A stretch of DNA of 64,000 bases from an uncultured Armatimonadia bacterium (GCA_964528605.1 CAZGSV010000003.1:2094-66093); one strand, 5' to 3'; shown: positions 53,942 to 63,989, counted from the stretch's first letter. Notes: generated from the letters alone by a model not told the origin. A program made the numbers and translations.

Positions 53942-54595
53942 CTAGTCAGAATACGAGATGTCCCAGTACTTGCGCCAGACGTTCTCGGACACTACCTGCG
54001 GGCTGGCCGGCGCGGGGTTGCCGGCCTCGTCGGCGTGGTCGGTGTCGCTGTGATACATCTCCGGCCGCATCCACTCGCTGTGCCCGTCAGCGAAGAGCAC
54101 ATTGGACCCGCCGTTGTGCACCCGACACACCGCCCAGTAGCAGAGCGCGCCCCCCTGGAACAGTCCTACCGGCCCGCACGGCGGACCCGCGAGACACCTG
54201 TCCCATTCGACCAGCAGAATCTTGTCGGCCGGTGCGGTGACGGCCGCAGCCCCCCTCCCCGGGAAGCCAGCCACGTAAGGGCTCTGACAGCCGACGTTGT
54301 AGCCGTGACCGTAGAACCACGACAGGTCAGGCCGGCTCGGGCACTTGAAGAAGGTTTCCTTGGTCACGAAGGGCGCTATCCGTTCCTTCCACTTGTAGGC
54401 CAAGGGATACCGCTCCTGCCAGTCGGTGACATACATAGAAAAGGCCATCCCCATCTGGCGCATGTTCGAGAGGCAGGTCGTCTTGCGCGCCGCCTCGCGC
54501 GCCCTGGCTATGACGGGGAAGAGGATGGCAGCCAGAATGGCAATGATAGCGATGACGACCAGCAACTCGATGAGGGTGAAGCCTCGCTTGGCCAA
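53942..54595 (-). CDS. prepilin-type N-terminal cleavage/methylation protein with H-X9-DG (DUF1559-like) C-terminal domain
   Basis: [28 protein letters not shown] class-III signal and LFADGHSEW motif. TTG start 7 nt after a GGGAGGG RBS. Confidence 0.8.
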
Positions 54596-54728
54596 ACTGA
54601 GCCCTCCCGCGGGACGGTGGCACGATTCCCTGAATCGTAACACTGGCGCCCCGGCCGGGCAAGTCCCGGAGCGCGGGACGGGCGTGCCGCTCTCAGGCTG
54701 TTTGCCCTGGCAGGACGAAGATGCCAGA

Positions 54729-56156
54729 ATGCGGCCCCTGGTGACCGCGATGAATAGTGTGACTGAATCGGCGAGACAACTGGCGGTCGTCGCGCAGGCC
54801 GAGGTGCTCGTGGCCGGCGGCGGCGTCTCCGGCCTGGCGGCGGCGATCTGCGCGGGGCGGGCGGGGGCGCAGACGATGCTCCTAGAGCGCACTAGCCTGC
54901 TGGGCGGGACCGCTACCGCCGGCCTGATGGCCAACGTGACGAATCACTGTTTTGAGAAGAGCGGCCGGCAGGTAGTGAAGGGCTTTACGGAGGAGTTCCT
55001 GAACCGCCTCGCCGAGCGCGACGGGGGGCTGCGAGATTGGCGGCATCCCGAGGTTCCCCAGGTGCCTTTCGACCCGGAGGTATTCCAACTGGTCGCGATG
55101 GAGATGCTGCGCGAGGTCAAGGTGCGGGTGTGGCTGGAGACTTGGGCTGTCGGCGTGCTGACGGAGGAGGGGAAAGTCACGGGGATCGTCGTCGAGACCC
55201 GCGGCGGGCGCAAGGCGCTACGCGGCAACGTCACGGTTGATTGCACCGGTGACGCGGACCTAGCCTGCCTCGCTGGCGCAGAGATGCGCGTCGGCCACGG
55301 TGGGCACAGCCTCGAGTTCCGAATGGGAAACGTTGACCTGGAGCGTGCCTACCAATTCGTCCGCGATAACGCGCGCAACTTCATCGAGAAGTCGGACGTG
55401 CCGACCCTGTTTGCCGAGTTTTGCCGCAACTGGGAGGAGCGCGGCCTGTTCCATCTGCCGCACGGCGGCGGCCGCGAGATGCCGCTGTTGCAGGAGGCCA
55501 TCAAGCGAGGCGAGTTCAAGGCCGAGGACGGGCGGGCCTACGGCATGGACTCGCTGGGGATGTACGCGGTGCGCGGCGACAGCACCGTGATCGTCAACGC
55601 CAACTTCTTCCGCTTCGACGTCTTCGACCCGGACGAGTACACCGCGGTGCAGTTCGAGGCGCGCGAGAAGTGCTTCTATGTCGCGGACTTTCTGCGGCGG
55701 CACTTCCCCGGGTTCGAGAACGCCTTCATCGTGGCAACCGCACCCACGCTGGGGCTGCGGCGGACCCGCTGCATAACAGGCGCCTATGTGCTCAACGACG
55801 ATGACCTGCGGCGCGGCGCGCAGTTCGACGATGTCGTGGGCCTGGCGAGCGAGATTCGCCAGGAGGCGAGGCTGGAGCGGGCGGTCGAGATTCCCTATCG
55901 GTGTCTGCTGCCGCAGCGGGTAGAGGGGCTTCTCGTCGCCTCGGGCAAGACCATCTCGACGGACCCGTGCGCCCTCATCCGGGGGCAGGCTCACTGCATG
56001 ACCATCGGGCAGGCGGCGGGCGTGGCCGCCACGCTCTCCTCGCGGCCCGGCGTCGTTCCCTCACAACTGGACGTGAAGGCGCTGCAGCGCGCGCTGCTGG
56101 CGCAGAATGTCTTCCTCGGCGACGCCGACCGACTGAGCGCCCTCGGTCTGTCCTAG
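54729..56156 (+). CDS. FAD-dependent oxidoreductase (FAD_oxidored-type)
   Basis: [21 protein letters not shown] dinucleotide-binding motif. 475 aa. Divergent from the pilin-like gene. Confidence 0.7.
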
Positions 56157-56215: not shown

Positions 56216-57346
56216 CTACTGCTGCGCGCCGGCTTGCGCCCCGCCGGCCGGCGGTGGGTGCGCCGCCAGGGCCTCCTGCGCGAACCGGACAGCGTTGCGC
56301 CAGACGCGGACTTGCGCCGCCGCGTCCGTATGGTACCCGGTTCCTGACGCCACTTGCCGTATGACCACGACGTCCACCTCGCCGCCGCTCTCAATCTCCA
56401 TGATCTCGCCCTGGTAGCGCCGGAACTTGGCCTCCTTCTTTTCCTGAGCCGTCTGCGTCTTCCAGAAAGCCCGCGAGGCCGCGGGCGGCGGCTCCGCGCG
56501 CTTTTCCGCAAACGCAGCCAGTCCGAACGCGGGTCGCGCCAGCACTACGCAGTACAGGTAGGGATAGGCAGTGCCCTGCACGCTGTTGAGGGACACCTGC
56601 GTCTGCACGCCGATGAACTCCGGGGGGGCGCCCGTGAGCTCGAACAGCAGCCGGCAATCGGTGGGTGTGCGCTTGGGTTCCTTGCCCGACAACTCCAACA
56701 TGGGCACGCACTGGAGCGGCATCTTTGGGTCGCGCTGCAACTCTCTGTAGACGTTGAGCAGCGGCTCCAGTTTGAGCGCGATCTGCGGCGGTTCCCAAAC
56801 CAGCGCCCATCCGGAGAGCCAGAAGGGAATGAGCAGCAGCAGCGAGTCCACCACCCACACCGCCAGCAGGCTGTCCGTAGCCGGGCGCATGCCGAGCAAG
56901 GCCCAGAACTGATCTCCCACGTCCAATGGCGGGGGCCCACCGACCTCGTACAGGCCGACCGTTACGCCGCCCACGAGCACGAGATACCCCAGGAATCCCA
57001 AGCAGCCCCAGCCGCAGCCGAGGCCGAAGCGCGAGGCCCGCCGCTTGGCCTCCTCGGCTTGCCCGTGGAGCGCGGCGAGCCGCTTGAGTTCCTCGACGGT
57101 CACCCGCTCCCACTTGCGCTCGCGCGAGACGGGCGCTTTGGCGCTCCTCACCGACCGTAGGATCAACAGCCCCACGCCGACCACATAGACCAGCGTCCCG
57201 AGCAGGCCCGCCACCAGCAACTGCAATGCCGCCCCCGCGAGCAGCGCCGCCCCGGCAAGCACAAGGCGCGCCCTGCGCGGCAGCCCCGGGGCGAATAGGT
57301 ACTTGGGCTGTGGCGGCTTCTCCGTCGCCTGGGAGCGCTTAGCCAT
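56216..57346 (-). CDS. polytopic membrane protein, last gene of the rSAM operon
   Basis: 376 aa, 4-5 predicted TM helices, GLGCGWGCLGFLGYLV segment. ATG overlaps the rSAM stop (ATGGCTAA). Confidence 0.45.
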   Translation of the reverse strand: MAKRSQATEKPPQPKYLFAPGLPRRARLVLAGAALLAGAALQLLVAGLLGTLVYVVGVGLLILRSVRSAKAPVSRERKWERVTVEELKRLAALHGQAEEAKRRASRFGLGCGWGCLGFLGYLVLVGGVTVGLYEVGGPPPLDVGDQFWALLGMRPATDSLLAVWVVDSLLLLIPFWLSGWALVWEPPQIALKLEPLLNVYRELQRDPKMPLQCVPMLELSGKEPKRTPTDCRLLFELTGAPPEFIGVQTQVSLNSVQGTAYPYLYCVVLARPAFGLAAFAEKRAEPPPAASRAFWKTQTAQEKKEAKFRRYQGEIMEIESGGEVDVVVIRQVASGTGYHTDAAAQVRVWRNAVRFAQEALAAHPPPAGGAQAGAQQ

Positions 57347-58763
57347 TCCGTATCGGCCTCAGTTCACGAGTGCCCATGGCGTCCCAGTAGATGGGGCAGG
57401 CAGCCCCGCACAGGTCGAGCAGATTGCAGTCGCGGCACAAGTCCGGCGCGTAGTCGCGGCGCTGCCACCAGCGCGCCGCCGCTGACGACCATACCTCGGG
57501 AAACGGCTCCCGCAGCAGGTTGCCGACGGGCTCGGTCACACTGGAGCACGGCAGCACACCGCCGTCCGGGGCCACGCTGAGCAAACCGTCACATGCCGCG
57601 CACGCCTTGTTCCCCAGGCCCTCGGCCACCGGGTTGAAAAGGCAGTAGGGCGTGGGAGAGTACCACATGAACTCCAGCCCGAGCCGCCGCGCGCGGTCGC
57701 GCACGCGCAGCACCGCCTCGCCTATCTCCTCGTAGGCCACGTAGTTGGCCTCGGGCTCCAGCGCAGCGCTGCCGCAGGGCATGATCATGTTCATCGAGAG
57801 TCGCTCGCGGCCCAGACGCGCGGCCAAGTCGACCACGCCCTCGACGCAGTCAATGTTGCCACGGCTGATCGTCGTGTGCGTGTGCGCCGTGATCCCGGCC
57901 TCGGCCAGGTTGCGCACCCCCGCGCACGTGGCCTCAAAGGACCCCGGCACGCGGGTAAGCCTCTCGTGGACCTCCGCCGTCGGGCCCTCAACGCTCACCT
58001 GCGCGCTGTTGAGGCCGTGCTCGCGCAGCGCCCGCGCGCACTCGGGCGTGATGAGTGTTCCGTTGGTGATGAGGTTGACGCGCATGCCGAGGCGGCGCGC
58101 ATAGCGTACCAGCCGCGGCAGGTCCGGGCGGACGGCCGGCTCGCCGCCGGTGAAACTAGTCGTGGGCACTTTGGCCTCGTGCCAGATAACGCGGAGCACG
58201 CGCTCGATGTCCCGTGTGCTCATCTCTCGCCCCGCGGGACCGCCGTGACAGCCGGGCCCTCCCGCGCCGACGCAGCCCGCGTAGCAGAACGTGCAGGACA
58301 AGTTGCAGCGGTAGGTGACCGCAATCTCGCTGAGCACCGGCAGCACATTGAACGGCCTGCGGAACGGCACCGTCTCCACCGCGCGCCGCGCCTGCCCTTC
58401 CCGCAGGCACCCGACCAGCAGTGCGCGCACGTCGCAGAAGAAGTCATGGATCTGCTGGCGTCGCTGCGGGGTATCTCCGACGCGCCTGAGGAACCGTTCC
58501 ACCGGCTCGCCGGACAGCGTCGCCTTGAGCAACGCGAGCGCCGTGGGGTTTAGGCGGTGCGCCTTGTTGGGCCGCAAGATTAGCAGGCTGTCCTCTTCGC
58601 GCACGTAGATGAAGGGCGCGATCTCGCGCACGAAACCGTCTATCCAGCGGATGTAAACCTGGTCGCCGTTGCCGGGGGCGGCACGCCTCCCGGCGCGCCC
58701 CTGCGCTCGCCTGCGCAACACAGACACTAGTGAGCCCCCCCGCTGACGCAGGCGCCGTGGCAT
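57339..58763 (-). CDS. radical SAM/SPASM-domain enzyme with N-terminal PqqD-like peptide-recognition (RRE) domain
   Basis: CNLSCTFC (CxxxCxxC) rSAM cluster motif. C-terminal CAACDG...C...CRDCNLLDLCGAAC SPASM cysteines. N-terminal LLILRPNKAHRLNPTALALLKATLSGEPVERFL matches the PqqD/RRE fold signature. A GTG at 58727 forms a TAGTG stop/start overlap and is an alternative start. Confidence 0.85.
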   Translation of the reverse strand: MPRRLRQRGGSLVSVLRRRAQGRAGRRAAPGNGDQVYIRWIDGFVREIAPFIYVREEDSLLILRPNKAHRLNPTALALLKATLSGEPVERFLRRVGDTPQRRQQIHDFFCDVRALLVGCLREGQARRAVETVPFRRPFNVLPVLSEIAVTYRCNLSCTFCYAGCVGAGGPGCHGGPAGREMSTRDIERVLRVIWHEAKVPTTSFTGGEPAVRPDLPRLVRYARRLGMRVNLITNGTLITPECARALREHGLNSAQVSVEGPTAEVHERLTRVPGSFEATCAGVRNLAEAGITAHTHTTISRGNIDCVEGVVDLAARLGRERLSMNMIMPCGSAALEPEANYVAYEEIGEAVLRVRDRARRLGLEFMWYSPTPYCLFNPVAEGLGNKACAACDGLLSVAPDGGVLPCSSVTEPVGNLLREPFPEVWSSAAARWWQRRDYAPDLCRDCNLLDLCGAACPIYWDAMGTRELRPIRNG

Positions 58764-60346
58764 GCGCTATGGCAGGCGGAGTGACAGGCCGAGTGGCACG
58801 CCGAATGGCATGCGTTGTGGCAGGCATCGTGGCAGGCGGTGTGCACGTAGCAGGCGCTGTGGCAGGCGTCCGAGTGTATCAGCGCACTGTAGCTTCTCTC
58901 CGGCGCGATGTTGGTTTTCTGCAGCGAGCGGTCTAGGTCGTGCGTGCGCCGGTAGTAATCGTCGCGGTCGCCGTAATACCAGTAACTGCTGTAGGGCCGG
59001 TAGTAGCGCTGGCCGAACGGCCCCTGGTACCATTCGTCCCCTGGTCCCTGTTGCGCCATCTGCTCGAAGTGCCCCCGGTAGGACTGCTTGGTCGCCTCCA
59101 GATCGCAGTCCCACGCCTTGCGCTGGAGGTTGTCCGACATCCGGACGAACATCTCCTTGACGTCGCTCTCCTCCAGCGTGCCGTCGAGAGTGATCGCATT
59201 GAAGAGCAGTTGGTCGTACTCGGGCACGTCCTGAAGCGTGGAGACGCGGCGTTCCAACTTGAGCGGGTCCACCGACTGGATCGCGATCAACTTCCGCCGC
59301 TCCATCCCGTCCAGCATCAGCGCCAGGATGGAGTTGATGGGATAGTCCAGCAGCAGCGCCGCCTCAAACATGTCGAGTTGCGCGATCTTGCCCGGCTGGC
59401 GGAAGGTGCTCACCTCAATCTTCGGAGGCACCCAGTCGTCCGAGGACCAGCGGATGCGACTCAGGTCCTGCGCCGTCTCCGTGGTGACCTGGTACTTGCG
59501 CTCCGCCAGGAAGAGCCCCAGCAGCACCAACCCTACCAGCGCCGCGCCCGCAATCAGCAGCCTCAGTCGCCGCCGCTGCGTGGGGCTGGTCAAGCGCGGG
59601 AGCGACTGCCCCTGAAACGGCGCCGCGTCAAGGTAGACCTGAATCGGCATCTTCTCCAGGGGTGCGACATTGGCCTTGTGCACGAGCATCGAGAGCCAGT
59701 AGCGGCCTTCCGATTCCTGCCCGTAGTAGTCAATCTTGTAGTTCTGGTTCATGAACTTCTCGGTCAGGATCTTGGCCTTGCTGACCTGCTCCGGGGTTAC
59801 GGCCTTGCCTTCGACCTCGATGGGGAAGTGCAGGTACACCGTCTCGTGGCCCATCGGCTCCTGGAACTGGCACGGCGCCCAGTCGAGATACACCAACTGC
59901 CCGTGCTCCTTGCTCTCGGTGGAGCCGAACATACCCTCCCGCGCCAGGTCCTGTGCGAAGACGACGCTGTAGGTCACGGAACCGCCCGTTGCCGCCGCGC
60001 CCTCCGCGAGTACGATGTCGTACTTCTCCTCTGCGCCGGAGACTTGGTTTATCGAGAGCGCGTGGGTGCGCCCCTGGCTGTCCTGTGCCTGGGAGCGCTC
60101 GAGGTCGAAGTACGGGTTCCCGTTGAACCCCTGCAGATAGAAGCCGTGCAGCGCGCCGCTGACCACCGAGTAGCGCGCCTGGTAGACGAAGGTGGCCTTG
60201 CCGTCTTGCTGGAGGCTGAGGTGCACCTCGACCCAGTCGAGGGTGACCTCCACTGCCGCCGCGGGCATGGCCGCGGCGCAGAGCAGCGCGACGAGCGCAG
60301 CGAGAAGAGGAACCGCGCGCAAGCGGCTCACTTTAGCGAATGCCAC
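58727..60346 (-). CDS. signal-peptide/membrane protein (DUF2207-like architecture) with Tyr-rich segment and C-terminal (Ala-Cys-His-Xaa)10 repeat tail
   Basis: Signal peptide AVPLLAALVALLCAAAMPAAA, a TM segment (LRLLIAGAALVGLVLLGLFLA), and the tail SDACHSACYVHTACHDACHNACHSACHSACHSACHSACHGACVSGGAH. GTG start at 60346. Confidence 0.6.
   Translation of the reverse strand: MAFAKVSRLRAVPLLAALVALLCAAAMPAAAVEVTLDWVEVHLSLQQDGKATFVYQARYSVVSGALHGFYLQGFNGNPYFDLERSQAQDSQGRTHALSINQVSGAEEKYDIVLAEGAAATGGSVTYSVVFAQDLAREGMFGSTESKEHGQLVYLDWAPCQFQEPMGHETVYLHFPIEVEGKAVTPEQVSKAKILTEKFMNQNYKIDYYGQESEGRYWLSMLVHKANVAPLEKMPIQVYLDAAPFQGQSLPRLTSPTQRRRLRLLIAGAALVGLVLLGLFLAERKYQVTTETAQDLSRIRWSSDDWVPPKIEVSTFRQPGKIAQLDMFEAALLLDYPINSILALMLDGMERRKLIAIQSVDPLKLERRVSTLQDVPEYDQLLFNAITLDGTLEESDVKEMFVRMSDNLQRKAWDCDLEATKQSYRGHFEQMAQQGPGDEWYQGPFGQRYYRPYSSYWYYGDRDDYYRRTHDLDRSLQKTNIAPERSYSALIHSDACHSACYVHTACHDACHNACHSACHSACHSACHSACHGACVSGGAH
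58730..58870 (-). repeat. in-frame ~12-nt tandem DNA repeat (GTGGCAGGCNNN on + strand) encoding the ACHX array
   Basis: Eleven near-identical 12-mers read directly from the + strand. The rSAM start codon (ATG at 58763) lies inside the array. Confidence 0.85.
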
Positions 60347-60352
60347 TACCCG

Positions 60353-60742
60353 CTACTGCTGCAGGCTCTCCACGCGCGCGCGCAGCAGGTCCGCCTGGGC
60401 GCAGATGAACTTGGCGAAGTCGCCCTTGGCCTCCGCCCACTCGCGCTCGCTGGGGAAGGTGTCCACGATCCCGCGCCACACTATCTGGTAGGCGCGCTCC
60501 AACGCCGGCTGGGCCTCTCCCGAGCCGCAGAACTCGAAGATGGCCTTGATGTCCACTGGGCGGAACACCGGCGAGGGGCCCGAGGGAACCTCCGTGGTGC
60601 AGCCCAGGAACATCACCCCCATCTCCTCCAGCATGTCCAGATGGAGGCGGACGGCCGCGATCACGGAGGCGACGGAGAAATCGGCCGAGGAGAAGTTCAT
60701 GTGCAGACTGCGCCCTTCGATCTGTGCATAAGGCGTGCTCAT
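60353..60742 (-). CDS. hypothetical cytosolic protein (129 aa), first gene of the rSAM operon
   Basis: ORF ends 6 nt before the start of the repeat-tailed protein gene. No family recognised. Confidence 0.4.
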   Translation of the reverse strand: MSTPYAQIEGRSLHMNFSSADFSVASVIAAVRLHLDMLEEMGVMFLGCTTEVPSGPSPVFRPVDIKAIFEFCGSGEAQPALERAYQIVWRGIVDTFPSEREWAEAKGDFAKFICAQADLLRARVESLQQ

Positions 60743-60870: not shown

Positions 60871-62268
60871 TCACTCGGCCAGGTAGCCGAGAGCCCGCAG
60901 GCGCTCCCTCTCGGCCGGGGTCAGCGGTCGCTGCACGCGCGTGACGGTGGGAAGGGGCTTCTCGAGCGGCCGCAGCGCCCAGCGTACATATTGCTCCGTC
61001 AGTTCAGGCCTCTGCGCCGCCAGGTCGCGCGTCTCGCCGGGATCGGCCTCGAGGTTGAAGAGCACGGGCACCCGCGACTCGGACAAGAGCAACTTGGCCT
61101 TGTGCGAGCGGACGAAGTCCAGCGTAGTCGGCGCCGGCTCCGCGCGGCCGTCAAGCAGGTAGGACAGCAGGGGGGTCCTGCTGTTGAACCGCTGTCCGTA
61201 GGCGAAGCCGCGGCCCAGTTTGGCGTTCTCGCGCTCCAGCAGCGGCACCAGACTCCTGCCCTCGTTCGGGGGCGCCGTGACGCCAAGCAACTCCAAGACG
61301 GTGGGAAAGATGTCGGCCAGGTCCACAATGTCGCTGCTGCGCTTCTTTGGCACCCCGGGGCCGCTCATCACCAGCGGCACGTGCAGTTCCTCATCGTACA
61401 CGCGCATCGCGTGCAGCAGGTAGTCGTGGTCGCCCAGCCCCTCACCGTGGTCGCCCGTGACCACGATCAGGGTGCTGTCCGTCAGATTCCGCTGGCGCAG
61501 TTCCCGCCACAGGCGCTGCAATTGCCCGTCCGCGTAATGGATCTCGCAATCGTACAGGTCGCGCAGCCGCTGCAACCCGTCACCGCCGGGAGTGAAGAAC
61601 GTACGCCGGTACGCCGGCGGCGGAGTGTAGGGGCCGTGAGGGTCGTACACATGCACGAAGAGGAAGAACGGCTCCTTGGCAGAATCTCTCAGCCAGGGCA
61701 GCGCCCGATCCAAGACATCCTCGGCCGGCACTTGCACGCCCCTGTCGAACGGGGACATCAGCCGCCAACTAGGCGCCACCTGAACGCCCCTGAAGGCGCC
61801 GCGACGATAGTACGCGTTCATGTTGTCGTCGTAGACTTGAAAGCCCTGGCTAAGCCCGGTGCCGGCCGACAGCACGCTGGAGCCGATGAAGCCGGCAGTG
61901 GAAAAGCCCGCGGCCCGCAGCACTTCCGCGAGCGTGACCAACTCAGGGCTGCCGATGCCGCTATTGGTGAGCACATCGTGCGTGCGTGGATGCAGACCGG
62001 TGAGCATAGTCATGTGCGAAGGCAGCGTCACGCTGGAGCACGCGAACGTCTTGAGGAAGACTGCCCCCTGGCGCGCAAGCGAGGCCACCCCCGGCGCCGT
62101 CTCGCGCCGGTAGCTGTGTAAGGACAAGTGGTCCGCTCGCAGCGTGTCAATGCTCACGAGAACGAGATTGCGGGGCTTCCGCGGCTGCGCCGGCGTCGGG
62201 CGAGAGAGCACGGCGAGTGTTCCGACCAGGCAACCCGGAATCACAACCGCCACCACCAGCCTCCTCAT
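60871..62268 (-). CDS. sulfatase-family (alkaline-phosphatase-superfamily) hydrolase/transferase, secreted
   Basis: LVLVSIDTLRADHL metal-binding motif and ...ACSSVTLPSHMTMLTG. ATG at 62268. Confidence 0.7.
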   Translation of the reverse strand: MRRLVVAVVIPGCLVGTLAVLSRPTPAQPRKPRNLVLVSIDTLRADHLSLHSYRRETAPGVASLARQGAVFLKTFACSSVTLPSHMTMLTGLHPRTHDVLTNSGIGSPELVTLAEVLRAAGFSTAGFIGSSVLSAGTGLSQGFQVYDDNMNAYYRRGAFRGVQVAPSWRLMSPFDRGVQVPAEDVLDRALPWLRDSAKEPFFLFVHVYDPHGPYTPPPAYRRTFFTPGGDGLQRLRDLYDCEIHYADGQLQRLWRELRQRNLTDSTLIVVTGDHGEGLGDHDYLLHAMRVYDEELHVPLVMSGPGVPKKRSSDIVDLADIFPTVLELLGVTAPPNEGRSLVPLLERENAKLGRGFAYGQRFNSRTPLLSYLLDGRAEPAPTTLDFVRSHKAKLLLSESRVPVLFNLEADPGETRDLAAQRPELTEQYVRWALRPLEKPLPTVTRVQRPLTPAERERLRALGYLAE

Positions 62269-63989
62269 CCCTGCATCTCCCTCAAGTGCGCCTCCACACG
62301 TGCGAGACGCTCGGCGGCGAGGCGCTTCCACTGGGGCGCGCAGCCCAGCACCTGAACAGCCGAGAGCGCTTCCCGAGCGCGCGAGAACTGCCCCTCCATT
62401 TCGTACGCGTACGACATGTTGAGTTGCGTCATCGCCCTCAGGTCGGGCCCCGGCTTGTACGTCAGCAACCCCTGGTAGTTCACCAGCCCCTCGCCCGGCT
62501 TCAGGCGCCGGAGGTAGGCGTTGCCTTGCAGCAGCACCCGGTCCGGCGAGGACCAGCCCGGCTCGGCGGGCTGCGCCAGGTCCGACTCCTTGAGATAGGG
62601 CGCCTGCGATTCCGTCAGGGGATCGCTGGCGTCCACCAGCACCATCTGCGCCCCGGTGACGTCAGGTTGCAGCCTGAGGGCGCGCCGGGCCTCCGCGATG
62701 GCCTGCGGAAACTGCCCCTGCCACAGATGCGCGCGCCCCAGAGCGGCGTGCGCTTCCGCCCAGTCGGGCGCGACCTTGACTGCCTGCTGCGCCGCTGCCA
62801 TGGCCCCCTGAGGGCGTCCCTCCCGCGCCAGCGTGGAGGCCAGTTGCACCAGCGGCGCCGCGTATCCCTTGTCCAGTTCCGCGGCCCGGGTCAAAGCGTT
62901 GATGCCCTGCAGAAACAGGCGCTCCTCGTAGCGCCGCAACTCGCCCTCCCAAGCGATCGAGACCTGCCCCATGCCGCACTGCGCCCGCGCATAGTCAGGC
63001 CTGGGTTTGAGCGCCGCCGCAAAGGCTGGCATCGCATCGCGCGCGTTGCCCCGGTCCAGAAGTTCCCAGCCCCGCTGGCAGAGGTATTGCGGATTCGAGG
63101 GGCTGAGTGCCAGCGCCCGGCCCGCCATTCTCACGTCGTCTCCCCAGGCTGCGGCATACCAGAGCCGTAGAACGACGAGTGGTACGAGCGCGACGATTCC
63201 CAGTCGCCACGGCCACGACGCGCGAGTCGGCGCACGCTGCTTGCGCGGTTGCGGCGCCGGCCGCACGACCAGTGTGGCCAGCAGCAGCGCCAAGCCGCCA
63301 ACCAGCATCGAGGTCGCCGCGGGCGCGGTCGTGACCGGAGCCCTGCGGCCCGCTGCCTCGAGCGCGGGCAGCAACGCGCCTGCCAGCAACCATACCGCGG
63401 GCACCAGCGTCTCCCGCTTGCGTACGGCGAGCCAGACCAAGCCGCCGGTGGCCGCAACGAACCACAGAGACAGCCCCACCGAGGTGCCCACGCTCACCGG
63501 CACTGCGCGCTCGAGGAGGAGCGGCACCGGCAGCAGTGTATGAAGGATCTGCAGGCCCGCGCTCGAGAGGACTGCTGCGATCCCGCCGCTTACGGGCGGT
63601 AGTTCTCCGCTAGTGCCGACCTGCGGCATCGGGCCGCGCAGATACGAGGCGGCTACTGCCCACAGCGCCGCCACGGCGAGCGAGGCCACCCCAGACCATA
63701 GCGCGGCCCGTCTCGAGGCCTCGTCTCGAGTGCTGAAGTAGATCGCCAGAGCAACGGGCCCTGCTACGGCTCCCCAGGGCCCGGCAAACGCAGCGCACAC
63801 GCCGAACAGCACGGCCAGCGCTACCCGCGGCCGGGCCGCCCGAAGCGCAAGCACCATCGCCCACACGAGGATGCTCGCGAGAAGCGCGCCTTGGTAGCGC
63901 AGCAGAAGCGCCGGCAGCAACGAGGGATGGAGCGCAACGACCAGGGCCCCGAGCAGCCCGACCGTCCCGCTCCTGGCCCACCGCGTCAA
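62265..63989 (-). CDS. polytopic membrane protein with C-terminal periplasmic TPR repeats (N-terminus may lie beyond the window)
   Basis: About 10 TM helices followed by TPR-like pairs (ALSPSNPQYLCQRGWELLDRGNARDAM...). Open frame continues to the window edge. Confidence 0.5.
   Translation of the reverse strand: MTRWARSGTVGLLGALVVALHPSLLPALLLRYQGALLASILVWAMVLALRAARPRVALAVLFGVCAAFAGPWGAVAGPVALAIYFSTRDEASRRAALWSGVASLAVAALWAVAASYLRGPMPQVGTSGELPPVSGGIAAVLSSAGLQILHTLLPVPLLLERAVPVSVGTSVGLSLWFVAATGGLVWLAVRKRETLVPAVWLLAGALLPALEAAGRRAPVTTAPAATSMLVGGLALLLATLVVRPAPQPRKQRAPTRASWPWRLGIVALVPLVVLRLWYAAAWGDDVRMAGRALALSPSNPQYLCQRGWELLDRGNARDAMPAFAAALKPRPDYARAQCGMGQVSIAWEGELRRYEERLFLQGINALTRAAELDKGYAAPLVQLASTLAREGRPQGAMAAAQQAVKVAPDWAEAHAALGRAHLWQGQFPQAIAEARRALRLQPDVTGAQMVLVDASDPLTESQAPYLKESDLAQPAEPGWSSPDRVLLQGNAYLRRLKPGEGLVNYQGLLTYKPGPDLRAMTQLNMSYAYEMEGQFSRAREALSAVQVLGCAPQWKRLAAERLARVEAHLREMQG

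Follow-up and report, generated by a model that had tools for sequence, protein, structure and literature searches.

The three-gene cassette

The window analysed here is a stretch of 64,000 nucleotides from an uncultured Armatimonadia bacterium. Towards its end the minus strand carries a gene for a membrane protein with a repetitive Cys-His tail (the tail protein), a gene for a radical SAM (rSAM) enzyme and a gene for a second membrane protein. The features to which the text refers are listed from the upstream to the downstream side.

60353-60742, minus strand: upstream gene, 129 aa, a clade-specific accessory (22 of 83 loci) and not core
58727-60346, minus strand: tail-protein gene, 539 aa (ORF and AF2 model), upstream of the rSAM gene in 82 of 83 loci
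58838-58867, minus strand: clade-specific lead-in ACHS plus ACYVHT, a 12-nt and an 18-nt unit (translation, relatives)
about 58745-58870: 12-nt periodic array, with the periodicity on the plus strand and coding on the minus strand (motif count, lag-12 identity, TRF)
58754-58837, minus strand: seven uninterrupted xCHx units, 7 x 12 nt, the conserved array core (translation and relatives)
58761-58763, minus strand: in-array ATG, earliest start-like codon in the mechanical ORF, not considered the true start
58730-58753, minus strand: C-terminal cap ACVSGGAH, conserved; the TAG stop comes next, at 58727-58729
58735-58741, minus strand: run of 7 G, Shine-Dalgarno (SD)-like, 7 nt upstream of GTG 58727
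58725-58727, minus strand: GTG, most likely the rSAM start, in a one-base overlap (TAGTG) with the TAG stop
57339-58727, minus strand: gene of the putative rSAM/SPASM maturase, 462 aa from the GTG (Pfam, AF2, Foldseek)
58416-58610, minus strand: RRE-like domain of the rSAM enzyme (AF2 fold, weak PqqD matches)
57825-58319, minus strand: Radical_SAM core (PF04055)
57423-57602, minus strand: SPASM domain (PF13186)
56216-57346, minus strand: third cassette gene, 376 aa, with four predicted TM helices and a conserved cytoplasmic domain

The tail protein, predicted to be bitopic, consists of a signal/TM segment, an extracytoplasmic beta-sandwich, one TM helix, a small cytoplasmic domain, a Tyr-rich linker that is predicted to be disordered, and the tail. 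Its AF2 model has a pLDDT of 68.9 and was built on a 7-sequence alignment, for which reason the topology is a prediction. In this model the beta-sandwich covers residues 33-240 (pLDDT ~90), the TM helix residues 258-297 and a further domain residues 326-432, while residues 432-539 have a pLDDT below 50. The Cys-His tail is predicted to be disordered and to lie on the cytoplasmic side of the TM helix. Read from the minus strand, the C-terminus is ...ACHS-ACYVHT-(xCHx)7-ACVSGGAH*, in which the seven units are ACHD, ACHN, ACHS, ACHS, ACHS, ACHS and ACHG. The tail thereby contains some 10 Cys and 8-9 His, spaced four residues apart. No other part of the protein is conserved as strongly: the A, C and H columns of the xCHx units are at least 90 % invariant in the family alignment against a mean column identity of 39 %. 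In other clades CYEGPF(L/V)QNV or CYxGCFVH(S/T) occupies the place of the lead-in, and the endings found in the family are ACVSGG[AS]H or ACVSSGH. In one relative (L084) the protein has a Gly-rich tail with the ending ...GGW.

In Pfam and NCBIfam the tail protein is without a curated family. It resembles DUF2207 (PF09972) in overall architecture (signal peptide, beta-sandwich, TM segment, cytoplasmic part), but the match is below the cutoff (16.6 bits; cutoff 24.4; E=0.0096) and confined to the N-terminal half; NCBIfam yielded 0 matches at E<=0.01. A fold search gave scaffold-type likeness only, to the luminal domain of ribophorin I/OST1 and to the N-domain of M1 aminopeptidase, and these likenesses of the model do not suggest a function. 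A word-indexed homology search returned the same 6 proteins with the single sequence as with a 31-sequence profile; as the collection is without the window's own protein, this number is not read as rarity.

The rSAM enzyme was matched by PF04055 (8.8e-29, 101 bits; cutoff 29.5) and by PF13186 (1.9e-9, 38 bits; cutoff 21.5). The cluster motif C153-x3-C157-x2-C160 and the SPASM motif CX2CX5CX3C (C443-x2-C446-x5-C452-x3-C456) are both invariant in the family alignment. By its sequence, the enzyme can be placed in the radical SAM superfamily as a member with a SPASM domain. Its AF2 model (pLDDT 88.4) has a beta3-alpha3 N-domain with a pLDDT of 85-97 (E40-43, E48-51, E55-58, H61-71, H76-83, H87-104), and PqqD (PF05402) weakly matched 10 of 20 members, with a best E of 0.0017. 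As modelled, the enzyme carries an N-terminal RRE-like peptide-recognition domain. It aligns structurally with SuiB over nearly its full length (~450 of 462 columns), and its Foldseek neighbours are SkfB, SuiB, PqqE and anSME. SkfB is the best match (1e-29 by sequence, 8e-18 by Foldseek) and CteB was also matched. No family cutoff of NCBIfam was reached; the best scores, far below the cutoffs, were to AhbD and NirJ2, which are non-peptide enzymes. PADLOC gave only generic viperin-like rSAM matches, which provides no link to defence.

The third gene begins at an ATG within the 3' end of the rSAM gene, the two genes sharing 8 nt. In 78-83 of about 84 loci this third gene, which has conserved motifs, follows the rSAM gene in the same orientation, and its 4-TM product has no family in Pfam, NCBIfam or PADLOC. 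The 129-aa upstream protein (median identity 61 % in its 22 loci) is likewise without a family and showed a weak TetR_C_6 match (E=0.027). Across 84 loci only three genes recur, all on one strand, and no peptidase, protease, transporter, exporter or immunity gene is recurrent among them. The cassette is present in about 520 species-level genomes, mostly of uncultured phyla, and the closest relatives of the window locus are Armatimonadota and Planctomycetota MAGs. Sequence comparison presents a conserved cassette in which an RRE-rSAM-SPASM enzyme is encoded between a tail protein and a 4-TM protein; the set matches no curated Pfam or NCBIfam family, and a literature search found no description of it or of its Cys-His motif.

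The 12-nt array and its number of units

The initial annotation described the array as about eleven copies of a perfect 12-nt repeat. The periodicity is real: with at most 2 mismatches, GTGGCAGGC occurs 10 times in phase within the array where 0.54 occurrences are expected (P=3.5e-10), all spacings being 12 nt save one of 18. At lag 12 the identity is 0.65, compared with 0.30+-0.04 for shuffled sequence, and TRF reports a period of 12 with 10.6 copies. The perfection, however, was not borne out. TRF gives 67 % matches and 10 % indels, there are only 3 exact 9-mer cores, and the longest word that is exactly repeated in the tail-coding DNA is 10 nt. The significance of GTGGCAGGC lies in this local in-phase clustering only and not in its window-wide count, which at 2 mismatches is uninformative (460 vs 465 expected). 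The array is indeed in frame with the (ACHX)n of the minus strand, where the translation reads ...DACHSACYVHTACHDACHNACHSACHSACHSACHSACHGACVSGGAH*. At the DNA level the four consecutive ACHS units are GCATGCCATTCG, GCGTGCCACTCG, GCCTGTCACTCC and GCCTGCCATAGC; these are not identical, which reveals synonymous-site differences among the units. Rfam and tRNA scans of the window gave no matches. That the array might be an artefact of assembly is argued against by its identical presence in five independent assemblies.

It had further been proposed that slipped-strand mispairing in a perfect repeat alters the number of modifiable units, the maturase being translated from the in-array ATG 58763. We regard this reading as highly improbable. 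A unit length that is a multiple of 3 would suit it, as would the unit count in very divergent family members, which varies from 1 to 10 in whole units and implies in-frame gain and loss of units over deep time. However, exactly seven xCHx units were counted in 72 of 82 related loci (88 %), in a survey that covers the best 80 of about 523 genome matches. These loci belong to at least a dozen phyla, among them Armatimonadota, Planctomycetota, Omnitrophota, Elusimicrobia, Acidobacteriota, Nitrospinota and Gemmatimonadota. A comparison of copy number across strains had been suggested as a check: in four independent assemblies of about 97 % identity the array had no indel and differed by a single synonymous change. 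Moreover, the synonymous sites are randomised. Identical 12-mers make up 5.2 % among ACHS units (permutation null 4.8+-0.6 %) and 2.7 % among adjacent ones (4.9+-1.1 %). The units also keep a positional identity, because in close genome pairs they agree at 0.85-0.99 with the unit at the same position and at 0.68-0.79 with units at other positions.

With 67 % matches, no exact repeat above 10 nt and no indel among five assemblies of about 97 % identity, the array does not have the properties of a slippage-prone contingency locus. Sequence comparison does not support a change of unit number as a contingency mechanism, nor is that number absolutely fixed. Judged from the same comparison, the 12-nt periodicity reflects, at the DNA level, strong purifying selection on a peptide motif and is not a mutable simple-sequence tract. 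The near-constant seven units point to a product of defined size, which would be unusual among repeat-type rSAM substrates.

The rSAM start and the junction of the two genes

For the rSAM gene two starts had been indicated, ATG 58763 and GTG 58727 with its TAGTG overlap. Both are in frame, but only the second withstood the comparison with relatives. ATG 58763 is the first start-like codon, and some gene callers start there, giving 474-aa calls in which the rSAM frame and the tail-protein gene share 37 nt. This ATG exists because Ala (GCA) and Cys (TGC) codons are read in the rSAM frame. It is without an SD, its anti-SD pairing being +1.3 kcal/mol compared with -10.1 for GTG 58727, and it is not conserved in relatives: in L003 the codon at this position is TTG, and an in-frame ATG inside the substrate gene is absent in 44 of 63 loci. 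In 27 of the 63 a stop closes the rSAM frame less than 30 nt ahead of the junction, which makes an in-array start impossible there. The conservation of the enzyme starts at residue ~34-40 of the 474-aa ORF, and the residues that ATG 58763 would add are not conserved.

GTG 58727 is the positional homologue of the starts in TGATG (18 loci), TAATG (1 locus) and TAGTG (L045), and three gene calls in the >=90 % cluster have 462 aa, as they would from this codon. Other candidates are GTG 58721 and TTG 58718; between 58718 and the onset of conservation no canonical start codon is present. By synteny and SD pairing, the rSAM enzyme most likely starts at GTG 58727. Dual coding was considered as a reason for the rSAM frame being open over the length of the array, and was rejected because GCN-TGY-CAY-NNN codons rarely make stops in that frame, where a stop arises only from CAT followed by a codon with A or G as its initial base. 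As stated, 27 of the 63 loci have this frame closed.

The run of 7 G consists of the Gly-Gly codons GGG GGG and the G of GCT. Its anti-SD duplex has the strength given above for GTG 58727, and -10 kcal/mol is reached by only 2.2 % of the window positions. In tightly coupled relatives the Gly-Gly codons are GGA-GGN, and hence contain GGAGG, in 25 of 35, and GGAGG occurs in 25 of 46 tight loci compared with 2 of 16 far loci (Fisher p=0.004). The SD of the window is GGGGGGG and not the canonical GGAGG. Because conserved Gly codons of the cap make up the SD, the same bases would be constrained both as peptide and as mRNA, so that one sequence serves the tail and the translation of its probable modifying enzyme.

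Junctions were evaluated in 63 loci in which the rSAM N-terminus could be anchored on invariant alignment columns, about 20 loci without such an anchor being left out. The start shares one base with the stop in 21 (+2 overlap), ATGA occurs in 2, a TTGA-type overlap only in 10 and a gap of at most 15 nt in 15, so that the genes overlap or lie within 15 nt in 48 of 63. In the other 15 they are more than 15 nt apart, and coupling is therefore not obligatory for the family. The window has the stop/start overlap geometry and the SD inside the upstream gene that would be expected of a translationally coupled pair. An arrangement of the tail-protein and rSAM genes for translational coupling, as initially proposed, is supported by these sequence features. 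The repeat and start codon as initially described are in themselves mostly ordinary: the repeat is a coding one, and the mutational interpretation fails.

A probable function of the tail and related systems

Taken together, we consider it probable that the Cys-His tail is under selection, that the rSAM enzyme is translated from GTG 58727 by coupling and that this enzyme acts on the tail. From adjacency, coupling and the RRE-like domain we infer the tail to be the substrate. Ribosomes that end the tail protein would re-initiate at GTG 58727, aided by the SD-like G run that the Gly-Gly codons of the tail supply 7 nt upstream. The enzyme may use its modelled RRE to bind the segment that immediately precedes the array, and may modify the Cys-His units, probably once per unit by analogy to TvgB on TVGG. 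The modified product would stay on the membrane protein because the cassette is without a protease or an exporter, and the third protein, with its four predicted TM helices, may be a membrane partner.

The absence of protease and exporter would also fit a tail that is not a substrate but a metal-binding or redox-sensing module (Cu, Zn, Ni or Fe-S), the rSAM enzyme acting elsewhere, for instance on a lipid, a small molecule or the 4-TM partner. The Cys/His composition agrees with this, a defined metal site would go well with a fixed length, and the best NCBIfam scores of the enzyme, although far below the cutoffs, are to the non-peptide enzymes AhbD and NirJ2. We nevertheless think it rather unlikely. 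The enzyme has an RRE-like peptide-recognition domain, its nearest solved structures (SkfB, SuiB, PqqE, anSME) modify peptides or proteins, and the genes of tail and enzyme lie side by side in 82 of 83 loci, in most cases with translational coupling. Both ideas are compatible if the modification makes the metal site.

An RRE-rSAM-SPASM enzyme adjoining a Cys-rich repeat region is a RiPP signature, and TvgA with its TVGG repeats is a precedent for modification per repeat (PMC9062424). Still, we regard it as highly improbable that the tail is a core peptide that is cut from a 490-residue 'leader' and released as a natural product. Three genes recur in the 84 loci, and none of these is for a peptidase, a transporter or immunity. 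The tail is carried by a conserved membrane protein of ~540 aa (539 in the window), which is modelled with a folded domain on either side of the membrane, and is itself almost invariant in ~520 species of many phyla, unlike the diversifying precursors of natural products.

If the enzyme does act on the tail, it is conceivable, though a tentative suggestion, that each of the seven Cys-His units receives an undescribed modification (e.g. a Cys-His or Cys-backbone crosslink), yielding a tethered metal-binding or redox-active module. A disordered tail would in this way become a module of set length on the inner side of the membrane. It would represent a new protein-derived cofactor or class of post-translational modification in more than 500 uncultured species, spread over the PVC group, Armatimonadota, Omnitrophota, Elusimicrobia and others. 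The partner of the RRE-rSAM-SPASM enzyme is here not a small peptide but the C-terminal tail, almost invariant, that a ~540-aa membrane protein carries, and neither the tail protein nor the enzyme subfamily nor the third protein is in a curated Pfam or NCBIfam family. Standard RiPP mining typically seeks short ORFs adjoining rSAM genes and would miss such substrates.

In the poly-cyclopropylglycine pathway the RS-SPASM enzyme TvgB modifies each TVGG repeat of TvgA once; TvgA itself is short, and peptidase and transporter genes and an oxidase belong to its cluster (PMC9062424). The present locus shares with it a four-residue repeat at the C-terminal end of the probable substrate and an adjoining radical SAM enzyme. 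It differs in that the unit is xCHx, without Val, that it is carried by a 539-aa membrane protein, with 7 units in most loci, and that processing or export genes do not recur.

The ACGX system, which is known only from its in silico definition, pairs the TIGR04340 enzyme (rSAM_ACGX) with an ACGX-repeat peptide. An Ala-Cys-x-X unit, a four-residue period and an adjoining radical SAM/SPASM enzyme are common to both, whereas the third residue here is His instead of Gly and the candidate substrate is a large membrane protein instead of a short peptide. The rSAM enzyme scored 79.9 bits against the TIGR04340 cutoff of 400, and the tail protein, as stated, has no NCBIfam match. Of the Hxs system only HxsC4 was matched (86.4 bits; cutoff 500), and the tail repeat reads H-S-A-C with Ser at +1, not at +2 as in His-Xaa-Ser.

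SkfB and CteB, which form thioethers of the sactipeptide or ranthipeptide type, are both matched by the enzyme, SkfB best of all, and act on Cys-rich substrates, as the tail would be. PapB introduces one crosslink per repeat into the six CxxxD repeats of freyrasin. The present system differs from these three in that the candidate substrate is not a short leader-core peptide, export machinery is lacking, no family cutoff is reached and no acceptor residue is assignable. A modified product that stays in a functional protein, with Cys as target residue, as would be the case here, is known from anSME, which converts Cys/Ser to formylglycine in sulfatases, and from QhpD, which makes thioethers in the QhpC subunit. 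anSME, however, has one target site and no RRE, whereas there are seven tandem units here and an enzyme with an RRE-like domain. The C/S-x-P/A-x-R motif is absent from the tail, and a sulfatase-family gene adjoins the cassette in only 3 of 83 loci.

Coupling by stop/start overlap (ATGA/TGATG) is a general feature of bacterial operons. The window junction resembles it in its one-base TAGTG overlap and in having the SD inside the upstream coding sequence, and departs from it in using a GTG and a G run in place of ATG and GGAGG. It is further distinguished by an SD that is provided by two conserved Gly codons of an invariant cap.

Repeat array at the end of the tail-protein gene

The gene for the tail protein, a membrane protein with a C-terminal Cys-His array, ends in a 12-nt periodic stretch:

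58727-60346, - strand: tail-protein ORF, 539 aa, with the array as its 3' end (ORF reading)
58745-58870, + strand: 12-nt array, 10 in-phase copies of the core GTGGCAGGC (counted with at most 2 mismatches)

The 10 core matches were spaced by 12 nt, once by 18, whereas 0.54 were expected from the remainder of the window (P=3.5e-10). The lag-12 identity of the array was 0.65 versus 0.30±0.04 in shuffles, and TRF returned a period of 12 with 10.6 copies, 67 % matches and 10 % indels. The periodicity thus exceeds chance by a wide margin and the array is real. Exact cores number only three, however, and no word longer than 10 nt is repeated exactly in the tail, so that the perfect DNA-level repeat of the initial annotation is in fact a periodic but imperfect one. 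Its frame for (ACHX)n on the minus strand was borne out by the end of the 539-aa ORF, which reads ...SDACHS ACYVHT ACHD ACHN ACHS ACHS ACHS ACHS ACHG ACVSGGAH*. The four consecutive ACHS units are spelled GCATGCCATTCG, GCGTGCCACTCG, GCCTGTCACTCC and GCCTGCCATAGC; their synonymous sites vary while the peptide stays the same.

Exactly seven uninterrupted xCHx units precede xCVS in 72 of 82 related loci, as in the window; the remainder carry 8 (seven loci), 9, 5 or 3 (one locus each). In an alignment of 31 sequences, invariance reaches at least 90 % at the tail's A, C and H columns, versus a mean column identity of 39 % for the whole protein. At the fourth position, unit 1 has Asp (66/72 loci) and units 3-5 almost always Ser, and Gly is confined to units 6-7.

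It had been proposed that slippage could change the number of units. Within loci, 5.2 % of ACHS unit pairs had identical 12-mers versus 4.8±0.6 % when codons were permuted among units, and adjacent units were identical slightly more rarely than expected (2.7 % versus 4.9±1.1 %). Concerted evolution was not seen in close genome pairs, where same-position units were 85-99 % identical versus 68-79 % for other positions. The strain comparison suggested earlier was made with four assemblies of ~97 % identity to the window over ~5 kb (ENA ERZ27247683, Logan SRR11722086 and SRR11721626, JGI 3300035688). All encode the same tail peptide as the window; the array showed one synonymous change (GCA to GCG) and no indel. 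This agreement among independent assemblies makes an assembly artefact as origin of the array unlikely. Slippage is opposed by the seven units of most loci, the lack of indels in close assemblies, synonymous sites at the permutation null and the positional identity of units. Among 26 complete tails from a library of 50 %-identity representatives, in which outliers are over-represented, counts between 1 and 10 occurred, never with a partial unit. This indicates in-frame gain and loss of units across deep time; signs of a contingency-type mechanism behind it were not found. On this evidence the tail is a conserved motif whose length hardly varies.

In two divergent family members, P0207 and P0246, ACVHD units break up the array and the ends differ (ACVSKF, ACVSSCAGSF); the two may form a sub-family with a distinct unit grammar. 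Searches of a word-indexed protein collection gave only six tail-protein relatives, of which four deviate from seven units and two are truncated. The window's tail protein was absent from it and the neighbouring enzyme was included; the collection seems poor in repeat-bearing proteins.

Start of the radical SAM gene

The next gene encodes a radical SAM/SPASM enzyme (rSAM), the putative maturase. Its start was sought among the canonical in-frame start-like codons before the conserved region, which are only ATG 58763, GTG 58727, GTG 58721 and TTG 58718. Candidates were scored by pairing with the canonical anti-Shine-Dalgarno (anti-SD) sequence:

57339-58763, - strand: rSAM ORF as listed mechanically, 474 aa
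ATG 58763: anti-SD ΔG +1.3 kcal/mol, pairing absent
GTG 58727: anti-SD ΔG -10.1 kcal/mol, a level attained at 2.2 % of window positions
GTG 58721: anti-SD ΔG -10.0 kcal/mol, through the same G run, at 13 nt
58735-58741: SD-like run of seven G, 7 nt upstream of GTG 58727, arising from the two Gly codons of the conserved cap ACVSGGAH
58646-58727, - strand: N-terminal extension, residues 1-27 from GTG, Arg-rich, unconserved, of low confidence, ahead of the conserved core

In 20 family members conservation sets in at residue ~34-40 of the 474-aa ORF with the motif D-x-x-W-[IV]-D-x-F, and the Met of most homologues lies 2-5 residues ahead of this motif. ATG 58763, placed inside the array by the initial annotation, does lie in the rSAM frame. 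However, it lacks anti-SD pairing, the related locus L003 carries TTG there, and the frame is stopped less than 30 nt ahead of the junction in 27/63 related loci; 44 of these 63 have no in-frame ATG within the substrate gene. Start-like codons arise in the array automatically, because the Ala-Cys codons GCA-TGC, GCG-TGC and GCT-TGC yield ATG, GTG and TTG in the rSAM frame.

An ATG stands exactly at the position of GTG 58727 in L003 (79 % identical rSAM), L004, L009, L062 and L070, the closest relatives that share the long extension. The Arg-rich extension occurs in the window's clade and a few others (these five loci and L013), and an 18-nt in-frame indel between window and L003 fits its translation. 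The lengths of 474, 462 and 460 aa given by gene callers for the rSAM cluster are ambiguous and favour neither side. The junctions of the 63 loci were distributed as follows:

One base common to start and stop: 21/63 (TGATG 18, TAATG 1, TAGTG 2, the window and L045)
ATGA overlap: 2/63
TTG alone within a CAT-TGA (TTGA) overlap: 10/63
Start at most 15 nt past the stop: 15/63
Start farther from the stop: 15/63

At the cap's Gly-Gly codons, 25 of 35 tightly coupled relatives have GGA-GGN and so spell GGAGG; this word was found in 25/46 tight versus 2/16 distant junctions (Fisher p=0.004). GTG 58727 is thus most likely the rSAM start, its TAGTG overlap being favoured by the homologous ATG starts and the anti-SD pairing. 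We conclude from this geometry that the two genes appear laid out for translational coupling. Strict coupling had been expected for either arrangement; coupling is supported with TAGTG, and a start in the array is not.

A three-gene cassette and its proteins

The repeat and start-codon claim points to an uncharacterised, widespread cassette, which is its more notable part. A pattern scan with one genome per species found an rSAM relative in 523 genomes. The best 80 of these (47-60 % rSAM identity), nearly all MAGs, belong to Armatimonadota, Planctomycetota, Kiritimatiellae/Lentisphaerae/Verrucomicrobia, Sumerlaeota, Omnitrophota, Elusimicrobia, Acidobacteriota, Nitrospinota, Gemmatimonadota, Calditrichota, Spirochaetes and others. 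In 82/83 loci the gene immediately upstream, on the same strand, encodes a tail-protein homologue, and the one immediately downstream encodes, in 78-83 loci, a homologue of the 376-aa membrane protein whose ATG, in the window, overlaps the rSAM end by 8 nt. Clustering of all flanking ORFs gave no other recurrent gene, be it a peptidase, transporter or immunity gene. By this synteny the cassette consists of three genes. The window's neighbouring genes include:

60353-60742, - strand: 129-aa ORF preceding the tail protein, clade-specific
60871-62331, - strand: sulfatase-family gene immediately ahead of the cassette

The former occurs in 22/83 loci, all of one clade (61 % median identity), with a weakly matching TetR C-terminal domain (E=0.027) as its sole family hint; the latter adjoins the cassette in 3/83 loci only. 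The sulfatase-family gene reads SSVTLPSHMTMLTG where formylglycine sulfatases carry C/S-x-P-x-R, and its product may therefore use a Thr nucleophile. The ORF at 53942-54934 (-) has a prepilin-type N-terminus and a C-terminal DGHSEWM motif, a combination typical of the pseudopilin-like proteins that abound in PVC and Armatimonadota genomes. Scans of the whole window (1-64000) found neither an Rfam family at the gathering threshold nor a gene for tRNA or tmRNA.

The AF2 model of the tail protein (7-sequence alignment, pLDDT 68.9) comprised:

N-terminus: hydrophobic segment
Residues 33-240: beta-sandwich, confident
Residues 258-297: single long TM helix
Residues 326-432: small cytoplasmic alpha/beta domain
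Residues 432 to end: disordered Tyr-rich linker and tail

The beta-sandwich was likened by fold to the ribophorin I/OST1 luminal domain and the M1 aminopeptidase N-domain. It matched DUF2207, for which no established function was found in the literature, below threshold (E=0.0096). In Bacterium UASB270 (L084:4000-4125) the tail runs on past ACVSGG as GGGGSSGGGGASGGW, a Gly-rich end typical of DUF2207 proteins, which hints that the carrier and this family may share an ancestor. For the third protein four TM helices are predicted, together with a cytoplasmic domain that is conserved but contains no conserved Cys or His. No Pfam/NCBIfam family was found for the tail, 376-aa and 129-aa proteins.

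The rSAM protein matched PF04055 (8.8e-29) and PF13186 (1.9e-9) and no NCBIfam model at cutoff (best AhbD, 137 bits, cutoff 500; 'ACGX system' rSAM, 79.9 bits, cutoff 400). In its AF2 model (70 sequences, pLDDT 88.4, pTM 0.89) residues 40-104 form a beta3-alpha3 element arranged as in a RiPP recognition element (RRE), where 10/20 family members gave weak PqqD matches. The nearest solved structures, SkfB, SuiB (~450 of 462 columns aligned), PqqE and anSME, are all peptide/protein modifiers. The enzyme is accordingly predicted to combine RRE, radical SAM and SPASM domains. Besides CxxxCxxC and SPASM, the family (window 57339-58727, -) has four more nearly invariant cysteines, C110, C119, C164 and C172 (474-aa numbering), two in the post-RRE linker and two directly past the radical SAM motif, which could hold an additional metal site.

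Proposed function and comparison with known systems

The tail would be cytoplasmic and accessible to the enzyme, whose RRE would bind the conserved segment directly ahead of the array (...Y-S-x-F-I-x-S-D-A-C-H...). The rSAM would then modify the Cys-His units singly, as TvgB modifies TVGG repeats one by one (PMC9062424). As processing or export genes do not recur, the product would stay on the membrane protein. For this enzyme class the candidate chemistries are Cys thioether crosslinks, Cys oxidation in anSME style and a His crosslink; for the thioether, the H-x-x-C spacing of the tail resembles the N-x-x-C motif of NxxcB. A serious alternative is that the tail binds metal, modified or unmodified, which is compatible with modification.

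The general kind, an RRE-rSAM-SPASM maturase adjoining a repeat-bearing substrate, is already known. Literature searches found no paper on the cassette, and tests placed it outside the ACGX, Hxs and anSME systems and classical RiPP clusters. The named systems nearest to it are the experimentally characterised TvgA/TvgB, the NCBIfam 'ACGX' system, defined in silico, and the thioether-forming enzymes of sactipeptides/ranthipeptides. From these the cassette differs in its xCHx unit, its 540-aa bitopic membrane protein as repeat carrier, its count of seven in most loci, its wide spread in uncultured lineages, and its tail and 4-TM proteins without curated family next to an rSAM without cutoff-passing subfamily model.
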